Under the pieces are notes generated by a model. The model did not search any database, was not told where the DNA came from, and worked only from the letters and a program-made list of their open reading frames with translations. Of a DNA stretch of 53,888 nt, positions 4,784-27,075 are shown in pieces. How positions within the stretch are numbered: the first letter of the stretch is position 1; every line of letters begins with the position of its first letter. Where the stretch lies: the NCBI GenBank assembly GCA_964521095.1, contig CAZFPJ010000002.1, positions 215,108 to 268,995 of the forward strand, in the 5' to 3' direction. A program made the position numbers and the translations under genes. This DNA comes from an uncultured Candidatus Saccharibacteria bacterium (GTDB lineage Bacteria; Patescibacteriota; Saccharimonadia; Saccharimonadales; 2-12-FULL-41-12).

Positions 4784-4870
4784 GCGCAAGTGGCGGAATT
4801 GGTAGACGCGCAGGCTTGAGGGGCCTGTGGGAGCAATCCTGTGGAGGTTCAAGTCCTCTCTTGCGCACCA
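4784..4870 (+). tRNA. tRNA-Leu (anticodon GAG), long variable arm, CCA encoded
   Basis: Hand-folded cloverleaf. Acceptor stem is GCGCAAG/CTTGCGC, anticodon arm is CAGGC-TTGAGGG-GCCTG, T-loop is TTCAAGT. Confidence 0.92.
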
Positions 4871-11962: not shown

Positions 11963-12045
11963 GGGCGAGTGGTGGAATTGGTATACACAGCGGACTTAAA
12001 ATCCGTGCCAACGGCATGAGGGTTCGAGTCCCTCCTCGCCCACCA
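11963..12045 (+). tRNA. tRNA-Leu (anticodon TAA), long variable arm, CCA encoded
   Basis: Acceptor stem is GGGCGAG/CTCGCCC, anticodon arm is GCGGA-CTTAAAA-TCCGT, T-loop is TTCGAGT. Confidence 0.92.
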
Positions 12046-21841: not shown

Positions 21842-24800
21842 ATGAAACGATACAATCCTAAAGATGCAGAGCCCAAATGGCAGAAAGCCTGGGCAGACAA
21901 GAAGCTGTACACAGCTGTAGATTTTGATGAACGGCCAAAGTTTGTCATGCTTACCGAGTTTCCGTATCCGTCTGGCGATGGCTTGCATCTAGGGCATGTC
22001 CGCGAATACACGCTGGGCGATATTATTGCTCGTAGACAACGCATGGCCGGCAAGAATGTGCTTTATCCAATGGGTTACGATGCTTTTGGCTTGCCGACAG
22101 AAAACTATGCAATAAAGAATAAAATTGCTCCGCAAGTTGCAACCGATCAGAATGTAGGTAATTTCCAAAAGCAGTTCGACAGTCTTGGCTACAGCATAGA
22201 CTGGGACAGGTCGTTTAGAACCACCGACCCAAGCTACTACAAATGGACGCAGTGGTTGTTTTTGCAGTTTTATAAGGCTGGGCTAGCCTATCAAGACGAG
22301 ATTGCTATAAACTGGTGCCCAAAATGCAAGACTGGTCTTGCTAACGAAGAGGTGGTGAATGGTCGGCACGAGCGATGCGACACCTTGGTAGAAAAAAAGT
22401 TCTTAAAACAGTGGATCCTAAAGATTACCGAGTACGCAGACCGTTTAATTGAAGGCCTGCAAACAGTCGATTACCCAAGCAGAATTGCCGACCAGCAAAT
22501 AAACTGGATCGGTCGTAGTGTTGGTGCAGAAGTAGATTTTGCTATCGATCAGGATTTGTCAGACAGAGAATTTGTTTTCTTTCATGGCAAAGGCTGGACT
22601 AAACAAGGGGCATTTTGGCCGTGGCTTAAGGGTCTGGTTGAAGAAAGAGGCGGCTCTGTGCAGATTCATAGCCTACCAAATACAGATAAGCCAAATATAG
22701 ACGAGCAAGTTGATTTTATTCTAAAAAATTATACCTTTAGTGACAAAACGACAATTGTTACTCACTCGCTTGGTGGTGTAGCCGCCATGAAGTTGTTGCC
22801 GATACTCCCTACAAAAATAGACAAGCTAATTATGGTAGCACCACCTCTGCGACCAGAATTTGTAGACGGCAAAGATCGTCCAGAGCTTGAGTCTTGCTGT
22901 GACTGGCAGTTTGACTTTGATGCTGTAAAGGCAAAAGCCAACGATATTATGGTGTTGCGTGATACAAATGATCATGTTGTCCCTCAAGATCATCCAGTTC
23001 AAATCGCGAGTAGACTGGAGGCTAGATTATTTGATTCTATTGGCAGTAAGCCACATTTTGATGGAACCAAAGAGCCGGCTGTACTGGAGCAGATAGTGCC
23101 GAGTATTAAAGTTTTTACAACTCGTCCAGATACGCTTTTTGGCGCAACTTATATGGTGCTCGCCCCAGAGCATCCACTAGTTTCTAGTTTAGTCCGTCCA
23201 GACACCAAAGAGGCTGTCGAAAAGTATATACAAGAATCTGCTGGCAAGACCGAGCTCGACAGGCAAGCCGACACAAAGGAAAAAACAGGCGTATTTACCG
23301 GGTCATATGCGATCAACCCAGTGAACGGCAAGAAACTTCCAATCTGGATTTCTGACTATGTACTTATGAGCTATGGTACGGGTGCCATTATGGCAGTACC
23401 AGCCCATGACGAACGGGACTTTGCCTTTGCCAAAGAATTTGACCTACCAATTAATGAAGTTATATCACCCTTCCTACCCAACAATGGTAAAAACGCGATG
23501 CGTCCAGGAATAGAAATTCTTAAGAGAGATGTCGTTGACGCTATTATCGTAAATGAAAATGGACAGTATCTTTTGATGGTAGAGCCCGATAACACACACT
23601 TCGTTGGGGGTGGCGTTGAGCCCGAAGATACAGACGATATTGAGGCTGTTAAACGAGAGGTCGTTGAAGAAACAGGCTATACAGATATTGAGAGTGTTCG
23701 CAAAGTTAGCTCTACTCTTATTACTGAAGGGTATCGCTTCACAAAAAATAAGAACCAACGGACCGTAGGTTGTTTTTATGAAGTGGTTTTGGCTTCTGAC
23801 AAGCAAATAAAGAGCGAGATCGACGAAGGCAAACACAAGATTAAATGGGTCTCAAAAGATGAAGTAGCTGAGTTGATTACTTGGGAAGGGCATGCATATG
23901 CTTGGGGCCAGTACTTAAATAATACGACTTGCTTTAGCGGCGAGGGGGTCATGATTAACTCTGGTGAGTATGATGGCTTGCCAAGCCAGGATTCACGGGA
24001 AAAGATTGTCGCAGATCTAGAAAAAGCTGGCAAGGGCGCAGAAAAAGTAAACTATAAGTTGCGAGATTGGGTGTTCAGTCGTCAGCATTATTGGGGTGAG
24101 CCAATCCCTATAATTCACTGCGACACAGACGGAGCAGTGCCCGTTCCTGAAGATCAGTTGCCAGTAGAGCTTCCACCAGTAGACCATTACGAGCCTACCG
24201 ACAACGGTGAGAGTCCGCTTGCAGATATCCAGTCCTGGGTTAATGTGGAGTGTCCAAAATGTGGCAAGCCGGCCAAGCGCGAAACGGACACTATGCCCAA
24301 CTGGGCCGGTAGTAGCTGGTATTACTTGCGTTATTACGATGCCCACAATGATAAAATTTTTGCCGGCCCTGAAAAGTTAAAATACTGGGGCGAGGTAGAT
24401 TTTTACTTAGGTGGTATGGAGCACACAACCCTGCACCTGCTTTATTCTCGGTTCTGGCATCAATTTTTGTACGACCAAAAACTTGTACCAACACCAGAGC
24501 CCTATGCGTCAAGGCGTGGGCAAGGGATTATCCTGGCCGAAGACGGCACCAAAATGAGTAAGAGTAAGGGTAATGTAATTAATCCAAACGACATCATTGC
24601 TCAGGGCTATGGGGCAGATTCTATCCGCCTGAGCATTGCATTTTTAGCGCCGTATGACCAAACAACTCCATGGAGTAGCGAAGGAGTAGCTGGAACTTTT
24701 CGGTTTATCCAAAGGTTATGGACACTAGTACAAGAATACCTCGAGAGTGACAAGCAAAAATATGAGCCCACCGAGCTCCGTCGGATAACTCACCGTGCAA

Positions 24801-25246
24801 TCCACAAAGTCTCTGACGACCTAGAAAAGCTAAACTTTAATACAGCTATCGCCTCTCTTATGCAGGCAACCAACGAGTTGTATAAGTTAAAAGCGAGCAA
24901 AGGTTTTAGTGAGGATTGGCAGGAAAGTCTGCTTGCCTTAGCTAAACTCCTAGCTCCTTTTGCCCCTCATATTACCGAGGAAATATGGCAAGAATTAGGC
25001 CAAAAAGGCTCGATCCATATCAGCCCTTGGCCAACCCATGACGCAAAATACCTAGAAGACGATCAAATTAATATCGTGATTCAAGTTAATGGCAAGCTAA
25101 GGACTACGGTGTTGGTTGATAAAAATGCCTCAGAAAACGAGATAGTAGAGCTAGCAAAAGCAGATCCAAAGGTTGCAGAACAAATAAAAAGCGGGGTAGT
25201 AAAAACTATTTACATACCCCACCGGTTGGTTAACTTCGTAGTTTAG
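21842..25246 (+). CDS. leuS: Leucine--tRNA ligase with two inserted domains (alpha/beta serine hydrolase and Nudix-like)
   Basis: The HIGH motif is GLHLGHV, CP1 is marked by TTRPDTLFGATY and GTGAIMAVPAHDERD, and KMSKS is TKMSKSKGN. At 1134 aa it is about 330 aa longer than the bacterial LeuRS I remember. Confidence 0.97.
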   Translation: MKRYNPKDAEPKWQKAWADKKLYTAVDFDERPKFVMLTEFPYPSGDGLHLGHVREYTLGDIIARRQRMAGKNVLYPMGYDAFGLPTENYAIKNKIAPQVATDQNVGNFQKQFDSLGYSIDWDRSFRTTDPSYYKWTQWLFLQFYKAGLAYQDEIAINWCPKCKTGLANEEVVNGRHERCDTLVEKKFLKQWILKITEYADRLIEGLQTVDYPSRIADQQINWIGRSVGAEVDFAIDQDLSDREFVFFHGKGWTKQGAFWPWLKGLVEERGGSVQIHSLPNTDKPNIDEQVDFILKNYTFSDKTTIVTHSLGGVAAMKLLPILPTKIDKLIMVAPPLRPEFVDGKDRPELESCCDWQFDFDAVKAKANDIMVLRDTNDHVVPQDHPVQIASRLEARLFDSIGSKPHFDGTKEPAVLEQIVPSIKVFTTRPDTLFGATYMVLAPEHPLVSSLVRPDTKEAVEKYIQESAGKTELDRQADTKEKTGVFTGSYAINPVNGKKLPIWISDYVLMSYGTGAIMAVPAHDERDFAFAKEFDLPINEVISPFLPNNGKNAMRPGIEILKRDVVDAIIVNENGQYLLMVEPDNTHFVGGGVEPEDTDDIEAVKREVVEETGYTDIESVRKVSSTLITEGYRFTKNKNQRTVGCFYEVVLASDKQIKSEIDEGKHKIKWVSKDEVAELITWEGHAYAWGQYLNNTTCFSGEGVMINSGEYDGLPSQDSREKIVADLEKAGKGAEKVNYKLRDWVFSRQHYWGEPIPIIHCDTDGAVPVPEDQLPVELPPVDHYEPTDNGESPLADIQSWVNVECPKCGKPAKRETDTMPNWAGSSWYYLRYYDAHNDKIFAGPEKLKYWGEVDFYLGGMEHTTLHLLYSRFWHQFLYDQKLVPTPEPYASRRGQGIILAEDGTKMSKSKGNVINPNDIIAQGYGADSIRLSIAFLAPYDQTTPWSSEGVAGTFRFIQRLWTLVQEYLESDKQKYEPTELRRITHRAIHKVSDDLEKLNFNTAIASLMQATNELYKLKASKGFSEDWQESLLALAKLLAPFAPHITEEIWQELGQKGSIHISPWPTHDAKYLEDDQINIVIQVNGKLRTTVLVDKNASENEIVELAKADPKVAEQIKSGVVKTIYIPHRLVNFVV

Positions 25247-26574: not shown

Positions 26575-27075
26575 ATGAAACGACCAAAACCTAACTTACC
26601 CGGTTTTAAAAAGTTTATACCTAGGCGGAAGCCAGCTATTAACGAAGTCGTCCGCGAGCCAACCAGCGGTGGTATGGTTTTTCGTCGTAACAAAAAGGGC
26701 GAGGTAGAGATATTACTGATTCAAGACGCCAAAGATCGTTGGACTATCCCAAAAGGGCATATCGAAGAGGGCGAAACCGCCAAAGAGACTGCCGAGCGCG
26801 AGATTCAGGAAGAAACCGGATTACAAGAAATGAATGTGTTAAATTGGCTTGGCAAGATTAACTTTAGATATCGCAGGGCTAACAGTCTAGTCCTGATGAC
26901 TACCGAAATTTTTTTGGTACATGCTAAAGGCGACACCGATAAACTAAAACCAGAAGATTGGATGAACGGCATTAAGTGGTTTAGCGCCAACGAAGCCCTG
27001 GACAAGATAGAATATGAAGATATTGGCAAGATAATATTGCTAGGACTTAAAAAAATACGGAGCAACGGGCTCTAG
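26575..27075 (+). CDS. NUDIX hydrolase
   Basis: The Nudix box reads GHIEEGETAKETAEREIQEETGL. Confidence 0.85.
   Translation: MKRPKPNLPGFKKFIPRRKPAINEVVREPTSGGMVFRRNKKGEVEILLIQDAKDRWTIPKGHIEEGETAKETAEREIQEETGLQEMNVLNWLGKINFRYRRANSLVLMTTEIFLVHAKGDTDKLKPEDWMNGIKWFSANEALDKIEYEDIGKIILLGLKKIRSNGL

Follow-up and report, generated by a model that had tools for sequence, protein, structure and literature searches.

Background

Few enzymes are as highly conserved as the aminoacyl-tRNA synthetases, and in leucyl-tRNA synthetase (LeuRS) the CP1 domain is a textbook case of proofreading as well as a drug target. What, then, would a second hydrolase be doing in the middle of CP1? The question is raised by the leuS gene in a 53,888-nucleotide stretch of contig CAZFPJ010000002.1 (hereafter the window, to which all coordinates given without a locus name refer) from the assembly GCA_964521095.1 of an uncultured Candidatus Saccharibacteria bacterium. 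A first-pass annotation of this DNA proposed that about 150 extra residues in the editing domain of the LeuRS form a Nudix-like hydrolase and that, together with a further hydrolase insertion, they make the protein a three-enzyme mosaic. Here we present evidence that the segment is a genuine Nudix domain and that, far from being a one-off, it belongs to a widespread, modular and seemingly undescribed family of cassettes carried by LeuRS. We also weigh the proposal that the domain may dispose of Ap4A-like by-products of the synthetase against other explanations for its presence.

A Nudix domain nested in the CP1 editing domain

The extra segment lies exactly where the first-pass annotation had placed it: nucleotides 23474-23926 of the plus strand translate as LPNNGKNAMRPG...GQYLNNT, which corresponds to residues 545-695 of the LeuRS. 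The Pfam Nudix profile PF00293, with a gathering cut-off of 21.1 bits, matches at 50.6 bits in the full protein and at 55.6 bits (E = 7e-15) when the segment is searched alone. The domain is located between the AHDERD...LPI strand and the GEGxMINSG strand of CP1, where the flank CFSGEGVMINSGEYDGL was found. Its approximately 155 residues stand where the LeuRS of Thermus thermophilus (1H3N/2BYT) has about 13 (from residue 363 to 377), and the short loop that had been supposed at this position is indeed seen in insert-free LeuRS, where it is 12-13 residues long. Correspondingly, the stretch from LPI to NSG spans 174 residues in the window protein as against 27 in insert-free close relatives. The GC content of the insert (0.42, versus 0.46 for the core) is not distinctive, and we rejected a foreign composition of the insert on this account.

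An AlphaFold model of the domain (residues 541-700, 30 sequences) has a mean predicted local distance difference test score (pLDDT) of 94.2 and a predicted template-modelling score (pTM) of 0.88, and displays the strand and helix order of the Nudix sandwich. In the AlphaFold2 model of the whole protein, built with 116 homologues (mean pLDDT 90.6, pTM 0.74), the pLDDT across the Nudix insert is 93-97. At E<=1e-3, a Foldseek search of the PDB with the domain model gave 327 matches; the 50 that were listed are Nudix enzymes without exception. The top match is Enterococcus faecalis 2AZW (E = 6.7e-10, query-normalised TM-score 0.72), and the leading matches further include the Aquifex aeolicus Ap4A hydrolase, AvrM14, NudI/YfaO, the T. 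thermophilus Ap6A hydrolase Ndx1, MutT1, DIPP/DDP1, animal Ap4A hydrolases, MutT and RppH. A profile search of PDB sequences led to the same structural neighborhood.

It remained to be considered whether the segment might be a chance Nudix-like motif, an ordinary extension of CP1, or a chimera produced by misassembly or a frameshift. Assemblies can certainly be noisy, as some database relatives that pass for stand-alone proteins are in fact leuS frameshift fragments, but the ORF (open reading frame) in the window is unbroken, the architecture recurs in dozens of independent assemblies, and profile hidden Markov models, fold prediction and structure search concur. The segment has both a Nudix fold and the REx2EE catalytic helix that an ordinary lineage-specific extension would lack. 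We accordingly consider these artefactual explanations refuted, and regard it as practically certain that these approximately 155 residues form a true Nudix pyrophosphohydrolase domain, inserted in a surface loop of CP1 of a Saccharimonadales-type LeuRS.

The Nudix box was likewise reported correctly, nucleotides 23606-23677 encoding GGGVEPEDTDDIEAVKREVVEETG, with the closing tyrosine of the box supplied by 23678-23680. Its helix, R605-E606-V-V-E609-E610-T-G-Y613, fits the REUXEEXGU part of the canonical signature. The strict spacing of GX5EX7REUXEEXGU is not observed, since the window protein reads G-x5-E-x9-RE (or, alternatively, G-x5-D-x8-RE). The longer spacing before RE, which the first-pass annotation had pointed out, comes down in the family alignment to a one-residue loop insertion that is common only to the window protein and three relatives (P0005, P0007 and P0010). 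We read this departure as a minor loop variation that would leave the catalytic helix unaffected.

The host enzyme is a LeuRS in all its parts. The TIGR00396 (leuS_bact) model matches at 971.2 bits against a cut-off of 548.4, in three stretches split by the two inserts, and the match extends to the C-terminus; the Pfam profiles tRNA-synt_1, tRNA-synt_1_2 (PF13603) and Anticodon_1 (residues 980-1099) all match as well. The class I motifs are present as HLGH at residue 49 and KMSKS at residue 904, and the editing domain retains both the threonine-rich motif TTRPDT and the AHDERD motif with the editing aspartate (Table 1). In alignment with T. thermophilus LeuRS, the two CP1 segments cover residues 243-363 (164 bits) and 377-440 (67 bits). 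Across 116 relatives, irrespective of insert state, there is no variation at T426, T427, D430, T431, D523, R525 and D526. Because every synthetic and editing motif is kept, the window LeuRS is, by all indications of its sequence, still the leucine-charging enzyme of the cell.

Table 1. Features of the leuS gene in the window and of the hydrolase domains within its product
Feature	Coordinates	Strand	Description	Source
leuS, one unbroken ORF	21842-25246	+	1134 aa, stop codon included in the coordinates; two hydrolase inserts	ORF list
Insert 1, alpha/beta serine hydrolase	22547-23095	+	aa ~236-418; CP1 entrance, between the GAEVDFAI strand and IKVFTTRPDT	
HSLGG with nucleophile Ser309	22763-22777			
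CP1 editing domain, part N-terminal to the Nudix insert	23096-23464	+	PF13603 match	
TTRPDT, threonine-rich editing motif	23117-23134		aa 426-431	
AHDERD, with editing Asp	23402-23419		aa 521-526	
Insert 2, Nudix domain	23465-23929	+	aa 542-696; Pfam core aa 561-684 (nt 23522-23893)	
Nudix box GGGVEPEDTDDIEAVKREVVEETGY	23606-23680	+	aa 589-613; catalytic R605, E606, E609, E610	
Tyr631, X-loop position	23732-23734	+	+18 from the Nudix box; followed by family-specific K (+22) and N (+25)	
Rest of CP1 (CFSGEGVMINSG...), second half of the Rossmann fold, anticodon-binding and C-terminal domains	23930-25243	+	T. thermophilus alignment resumes at residue 377	
KMSKS motif	24551-24565		aa 904	

Several minus-strand ORFs of 85-120 codons overlie the Nudix and CP1 region (23474-23836, 23776-24033 and 24017-24346); lying antisense to a confidently modelled leuS frame, they are most likely spurious. 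The window also contains eight tRNA genes, among them two for tRNA-Leu (anticodons GAG and TAA, at 4784-4870 and 11963-12045), and an Rfam scan of it found, apart from tRNA, no family at gathering score.

Distribution of the inserts among leucyl-tRNA synthetases

To place the window protein in context we used the 120 best-matching LeuRS, a set that is skewed towards insert-bearing proteins since the query carries both inserts. The same Nudix insertion, whose presence in related LeuRS had been left as a question, is found in the CP1 loop of 78 of them: 70 contain the Nudix domain only (approximately 958-965 residues in length) and 8 contain both inserts (approximately 1132-1180 residues). A further 9 have the serine hydrolase only (approximately 985-990 residues) and 33 have neither (approximately 810 residues). 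An exhaustive phmmer search of 1.84 billion representative proteins yielded just 265 matches with E<=1e-3; of the best 150, no fewer than 73 include LeuRS sequence. Public databases label these proteins no more specifically than "leucine--tRNA ligase" or "class I tRNA ligase family protein"; fragments of leuS are mislabelled there as "MutT".

The domain can also occur in multiple copies and at other positions. Pfam identifies two Nudix domains in P0124, P0141 and P0146 and three in P0129, and P0200 combines a Nudix domain at the second site with a Ser_hydrolase domain at a third site that follows CP1. Tandem pairs within a single loop were observed in P0124 and at a Saccharimonadia locus (L010, 1655-5065), and some of the multi-Nudix LeuRS have a Nudix domain at the first CP1 site.

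Beyond the Saccharibacteria, a Nudix domain within CP1 was detected (PF00293 at 32-45 bits) in L007:6001-8823, L009:220-3066 and L012:1833-4598, from metagenome-assembled genomes that are labelled Ruminococcus, Clostridia and Mycoplasmatota and have a GC content of 26-27%. We take these taxonomic labels as given, having checked them by GC content and LeuRS similarity only. The N-terminal parts of these three LeuRS are 60-67% identical to those of Firmicutes, as against 53-57% to those of Saccharibacteria, and the identity of their inserts to particular Saccharibacteria inserts reaches 38-46%, more than an average pair of Saccharibacteria inserts shows. A whole-protein scan of genome contigs had little resolution within the Saccharibacteria, as it was swamped by Firmicutes LeuRS through the generic motif FWHQFLYD; it was nonetheless the source of the Firmicutes-type Nudix LeuRS, of the tandem pair of L010 and of the Chloroflexi inserts described below. 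Taken together, these data place the domain in a distinct Nudix clade tied to the CP1 domain of LeuRS, present in one to three copies and at up to three loops, which on sequence criteria is sometimes swapped with, or accompanied by, a serine hydrolase of the PF06821 family.

The CP1 loop itself is an insertion hot spot, because the LeuRS of Chloroflexi (Anaerolineae/Chloroflexaceae) hold an unrelated insert of about 120 residues, without any Pfam match, in the same loop (L016:6001-8790, L018:3296-6250 and L019:699-3443). The L018 protein has in addition an extra insert in its N-terminal half. The LeuRS from L048, a member of the Patescibacteria, bears a low-complexity insert rich in proline, glycine and glutamate in this loop.

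The serine hydrolase at the entrance of CP1 is in turn a well-defined domain. PF06821 (Ser_hydrolase) matches above its cut-off of 22 bits, at 27.4 bits in context and 31.8 bits alone, and the pLDDT of the insert is 91-97. The nucleophile Ser309 and His405 are invariant in all 17 hydrolase-bearing relatives; at the position of the acidic triad residue D and E are aligned, with no single clean column. The term three-enzyme mosaic is hence a fair description of the window protein. The segment is missing from 103 of the 120 closest LeuRS.

Conservation of the active site in the embedded Nudix domains

The 78 LeuRS-embedded Nudix domains are highly divergent, with a mean pairwise identity of 28% compared to 71% over 789 columns of the core. 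Against this background the GG and E-x2-EE elements are invariant in every one of them, the arginine of the box is present in 67, and 61 display the strict canonical box. Downstream of the box, at +16 to +18, all 78 have an aromatic residue, which is tyrosine in 71; a proline at the X-loop position occurs in only two and the NADH array in none. This is followed by a lysine at +22 (66/78) and an asparagine at +25 (59/78). Because GG and E-x2-EE are invariant despite a mean identity of only 28%, we infer that the embedded Nudix domain is likely to be an active Mg2+-dependent hydrolase.

A subgroup of 11 domains has lost the box arginine (replaced by M, T, A or S) together with the Gx5E glutamate, which is replaced by glutamine, and has kept E-x2-EE. 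The glycine is often changed to alanine in the same sequences (P0013, P0018, P0038, P0039, P0059, P0064, P0067, P0068, P0096, P0105 and P0108). The concerted change has the appearance of a covarying pair, and possibly reflects an altered activity.

Such departures bring up the alternative that the domain is non-catalytic, serving as a nucleotide-sensing, regulatory or structural appendage that modulates the movement of CP1 or the binding of a partner. Non-enzymatic Nudix domains do exist in the clan, according to a review (PMC5389931), and both the non-canonical box spacing of the window protein and the 11 of 78 relatives without the box arginine and the Gx5E glutamate would be in line with such a role. 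However, E-x2-EE persists throughout at the low overall identity noted above, the 11 variants included, and the conserved X-loop aromatic residue with the subsequent K/N motif makes up a pattern typical of active enzymes. We therefore consider a non-catalytic role very improbable.

Exchange of inserts between near-identical scaffolds

On a neighbor-joining tree of the core columns, which is distance-based and has short internal branches, the four insert states are thoroughly interleaved. The window protein is nested there among Nudix-free relatives with 84-89% core identity. The seven nearest relatives of the window protein (78-89% core identity) all lack the Nudix domain and share the linker RVIKNxAxDDEC(T/S)xAEG, which is also seen in distant insert-free clades, and the flanks of the window insert (NEVISP..., ...CFSGEG) are of the type found in Nudix-bearing alleles. 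Four other insert-free proteins (P0065, P0081, P0082 and P0085) have linkers that resemble deletion scars of Nudix alleles.

When LeuRS pairs with 80-89% core identity are compared, the identity of their Nudix domains is bimodal, being either 70-85% or 18-26%. For instance, P0024 and P0025 are 86.7% identical in the core and 21% in the Nudix domain, and P0005 and P0028 are 85.5% and 20% identical, respectively. Both the drop in identity and its recovery take place no more than about 20 residues from the insert edges, and the domains fall into at least five clusters at 40% identity. The bimodal identity of inserts on near-identical scaffolds, with sharp boundaries, indicates that the inserts are exchangeable cassettes, swapped by recombination at the conserved flanks in CP1. 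These same two features led us to reject fast drift as the reason for the gap between 28% and 71% identity. The serine hydrolase has also been replaced as a cassette, because between the window protein and P0004 this insert is 18-50% identical while the flanking core (residues 21-239) is 92-100% identical.

The emerging picture is one of at least five old, divergent Nudix types and an empty state, with vertically inherited inserts evolving at roughly the rate of the scaffold and with replacement by such divergent types as the origin of the diversity. The lineage of the window protein probably gained its Nudix domain recently, through recombination with a Nudix-bearing leuS allele. A history of loss alone in its clade was rejected, on the distance-based tree with its short internal branches, given that the nearest relatives keep the ancestral type of linker and the window protein has flanks of the Nudix-allele type. 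Such polymorphism, both in presence or absence and in type, would be a rare case in a core gene of translation.

Stand-alone and detached relatives

Two short proteins, P0121 and P0122, which are 57-61% identical to the window domain, were considered as free-living donor genes and rejected: they have LeuRS flanks in their sequence and adjoining tRNA-synt fragments (L001:317-715, L002:1016-1462), and are leuS frameshift fragments. A profile built from more distant short matches instead recovered a large family of genuine Nudix proteins of 155-195 residues in Patescibacteria. Members of this stand-alone clade are usually not adjacent to leuS; two of them (P0300 and P0301) carry the submitter label "leuS". 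In one stand-alone protein of 379 residues, P0132, the Nudix domain of the LeuRS-linked clade is repeated in tandem, with at least two copies.

A second class of relatives comprises proteins of 270-287 residues that combine PF13603 and PF00293, that is, a shortened, free-standing CP1-like domain with a Nudix domain in the same loop (P0367, P0369, P0370, P0376, P0378, P0382, P0384; also L089:3584-4414 and L090:940-1752). In these mini-CP1 proteins the editing motifs are often degenerate, TTRPDT having changed to ETNRLD or LASAEL, and HD to HI. The gene for P0370 is placed directly upstream of a complete, insert-free leuS (804 codons) and downstream of a gene for a Nudix protein of 164 residues, with all three on one strand. 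P0376 has as its neighbors two Fic genes, a Zeta toxin, an AAA_15 ATPase and an APH kinase; the other contexts of mini-CP1 and stand-alone genes are housekeeping or uninformative. A larger protein, P0203 (388 residues), is composed of an N-terminal region of about 190 residues, a piece of degenerate CP1 (HIQEDWEYAKK...) and, up to the C-terminus GEGIMINSEKLDD, a Nudix domain.

The window contains a separate stand-alone Nudix gene at 26575-27075, encoding 166 residues and matching PF00293 at 69.6 bits. As had been surmised, its product is not a close paralogue of the embedded domain, the two being 24% identical over 82 residues (E = 0.004); its best NCBIfam match is MutT1-like and far under the cut-off. 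The order nusB-Nudix, usually continued by rnc and rpsP, is conserved whether or not leuS has a Nudix domain, and the synteny of a murF-like gene, leuS, a small ORF, nusB, the stand-alone Nudix gene, rnc and rpsP is unaffected by the insert state. The one exception is L083, where the gene that follows the stand-alone Nudix gene has no RNase III family on record.

These relatives bear on the possibility that the embedded domain is an uncoupled house-cleaning enzyme, acting on oxidised or non-canonical NTPs, ADP-sugars, coenzyme A or the like, which is merely lodged in a permissive loop of LeuRS and is thereby co-expressed in a streamlined genome, with no mechanistic coupling to leucylation or editing. 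That the loop tolerates unrelated inserts such as those of Chloroflexi (about 120 residues) and the low-complexity one of Patescibacteria, that the Nudix domain is dispensable in 42 of the 120 closest LeuRS, that many Patescibacteria have a stand-alone member of the clade, usually away from leuS, and that the sub-threshold NCBIfam matches of the embedded domain include MutT and NudI types would all agree with it. Yet the same clade is found in two phyla at two or three loops of LeuRS, a single protein having as many as three copies, and recurs both in the mini-CP1 proteins and beside leuS; so repeated and specific an association with LeuRS would be difficult to account for if there were no functional link. 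Moreover, a conserved stand-alone Nudix enzyme is already available in the nusB-rnc operon. We hence deem an uncoupled role unlikely.

Functional considerations

The most attractive functional proposal, in our opinion, is that the Nudix domain disposes of a nucleoside-diphosphate-linked by-product that arises at LeuRS or close to it. The likeliest substrates would be Ap4A and Ap3A, formed from enzyme-bound Leu-AMP and ATP or ADP; these are classic Nudix-type compounds made by aminoacyl-tRNA synthetases. Under this proposal CP1, which is already a hydrolytic clean-up domain, would have been extended with a Nudix module for pyrophosphate bonds and a serine hydrolase module for ester bonds. A tyrosine in the X-loop, about 17 residues past the box, marks hydrolases of the ApnA type (Dunn et al. 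1999, as quoted in PMC5389931). The embedded domains have an aromatic residue at this point throughout, and the markers of ADP-ribose and NADH enzymes are not their pattern, all of which is compatible with activity on ApnA. Among the Foldseek matches listed, Ap4A and Ap6A hydrolases occupy ranks 2, 3, 8, 20, 22 and 23, and they come fourth in the profile search; DIPPs and decapping enzymes are likewise found among the closest solved structures. If the domain indeed clears Ap4A, it would constitute a physical link between the synthesis of an alarmone and its removal at source.

Several observations weigh against this proposal. NudI, MutT1, DIPP, RppH and AvrM14 score much like the ApnA hydrolases, and the Foldseek E-values barely separate the latter from the MutT, NudI and RppH types. 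NCBIfam likewise gives a mixture of matches for the embedded domain (YtkD, MutT, RppH and NudI), all of them far below cut-off. The X-loop tyrosine is a weak discriminator, as the unrelated stand-alone Nudix protein of the window has a tyrosine at +16, and in the family alignment the window domain lacks the Gx5E glutamate of the canonical box, with an ED pair just upstream. Our literature search on Ap4A synthesis specifically by LeuRS turned up general reviews only, with no citation for a strong producer. Finally, a clean-up role offers no obvious explanation for the nesting within CP1 in place of a terminal fusion, nor any obvious account of a degenerate CP1 being kept in the free-standing forms or of at least five divergent types being kept and exchanged. 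On balance, we assign a probability of roughly 0.35 to the reading that the domain is an active Mg2+-dependent Nudix hydrolase that cleans up Ap4A or a related ApnA by-product of LeuRS.

The three features that a clean-up role leaves without obvious explanation, namely the nesting in CP1, the degenerate CP1 and the exchanged types, favor the main rival to it. This holds that CP1 and the Nudix domain act jointly on the acceptor end of tRNA, or on an adenosine-linked adduct bound by CP1, as a repair or counter-toxin module under conflict-type selection. The blocking group could be, for example, a 3'-pyrophosphate, an adduct of the ADP-ribose type or a 5' cap-like group by the CCA end. It is CP1 that receives the 3' end of the tRNA, and the Nudix domain stays nested in it even where CP1 is detached and its motifs have decayed (TTRPDT to LASAEL, HD to HI). 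The exchange of old cassette types and of the empty state among near-identical scaffolds, the variation in copy number from 1 to 3, the location of P0376 among two Fic genes, a Zeta toxin, AAA_15 and APH genes, and the presence of the RNA-end-directed AvrM14, Dcp2 and RppH among the nearest PDB relatives all lend themselves to such a reading.

On the other hand, only a single toxin-rich neighborhood was seen. The sole PADLOC-DB match of the embedded Nudix domain was to the generic Nudix candidate PDC-S07, with 19.7 bits (E = 1.3e-4), a score at which the domain does not qualify as a member of a defence family and which is surpassed by that of the housekeeping stand-alone Nudix. In tblastn searches against 50,697 phage records nothing was recovered for the window insert, and a stand-alone member of the clade gave only short, weak matches in Burkholderia phages. 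On these grounds we rejected a link to a defence system or to phages, and the weak, generic PADLOC matches as well as the lack of relatives in the phage records count against the tRNA-end reading too. We further reason that a 3'-diphosphate, once cut by a Nudix enzyme, would end up as a 3'-phosphate, which still blocks charging, and it also counts against this reading that we know of no such tRNA-end activity for any Nudix domain in a LeuRS or CP1 setting. We consider it doubtful on the whole; if true, with the tRNA end or adenylate-like toxins as the target, it would add a novel type of activity in proofreading or repair.

It is conceivable, if decidedly unlikely, that the CP1 domain of Saccharibacteria and some Firmicutes has become a docking platform for hydrolase cassettes drawn from a recombining library, which would amount to an exchangeable, immunity-like layer within an essential enzyme of translation. 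This library would include the five or more ancient Nudix types, the serine hydrolase and the empty state, distributed in 1-3 copies over three loops. Along with CP1, the cassettes would serve to recognise adenylate-like molecules or the acceptor end of tRNA, and to repair or detoxify the damage that toxins, antibiotics, or factors of phage or host have caused; the mini-CP1+Nudix proteins would be trans-acting versions or donors of cassettes.

Comparison with known systems

Both component families are well known; what appears to be new is the nested architecture, the modular diversity, the spread over two phyla, the mini-CP1+Nudix paralogues and the dynamics of exchange. It is unexpected for catalytic domains to be nested in CP1 at several loops, in two phyla and in up to three copies per protein, and equally so for such inserts to be swapped between near-identical scaffolds and to recur in detached, degenerate CP1 proteins. 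We found no description in the literature of a Nudix domain, or of any enzyme, nested in the CP1 domain of LeuRS, and the 2017 review of the Nudix clan (PMC5389931) never mentions a synthetase.

With the bacterial LeuRS of known structure from T. thermophilus (1H3N/2BYT) and Escherichia coli (4AQ7/4ARC), the window protein shares the HIGH-type motif HLGH, KMSKS, TTRPDT and the aspartate of AHDERD. It differs from the T. thermophilus enzyme in having a 155-residue Nudix domain for the 13-residue loop at 363-377 and, in addition, a serine hydrolase of 180 residues, and it is 1134 residues long as opposed to about 810 in insert-free LeuRS of Saccharibacteria. With the Nudix ApnA hydrolases and their relatives, for which we compared 3I7U (the A. 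aeolicus Ap4A hydrolase), Ndx1 (1VC8), the lupin enzyme (1F3Y), human NUDT2 (4IJX), DIPP/DDP1, RppH, AvrM14 and the uncharacterised 2AZW, the embedded domain shares the alpha/beta/alpha Nudix fold (query-normalised TM-scores of 0.55-0.72), REx2EE and the aromatic residue or tyrosine of the X-loop. Unlike these enzymes, to which it is only 17-25% identical, it has one extra residue in the loop of the box and is nested in another enzyme, and its family is distinguished by an invariant tryptophan and, following the X-loop, a K-x2-N-R/Q motif.

Other fusions of comparable kind differ in both partners or in their arrangement. NF040702 (isoleucine--tRNA ligase, N-acetyltransferase domain-containing) similarly unites a class Ia synthetase with an added catalytic domain, but both the synthetase and the added enzyme are different ones, and the window LeuRS, which scores 72 bits against a cut-off of 1999, is not a member. 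In NadM-Nudix a Nudix domain is fused to an ATP-using nucleotidyl-transfer enzyme (NMN adenylyltransferase / ADP-ribose pyrophosphatase). There the fusion is end-to-end and the Nudix domain of the ADP-ribose type (PRK05379), whereas that of the window LeuRS is internal and lacks the proline marker of ADP-ribose enzymes; the only matches to PRK05379 models were weak ones of the stand-alone Nudix protein of the window. AlaX and YbaK/ProX are free-standing paralogues of the editing domains of aminoacyl-tRNA synthetases, and the mini-CP1+Nudix proteins of 270-287 residues resemble them in being stand-alone copies of a synthetase editing domain. Unlike AlaX and YbaK/ProX, however, these copies derive from LeuRS, are shortened, have often lost the editing motifs, and carry a Nudix domain in the very loop that houses it in the synthetase.

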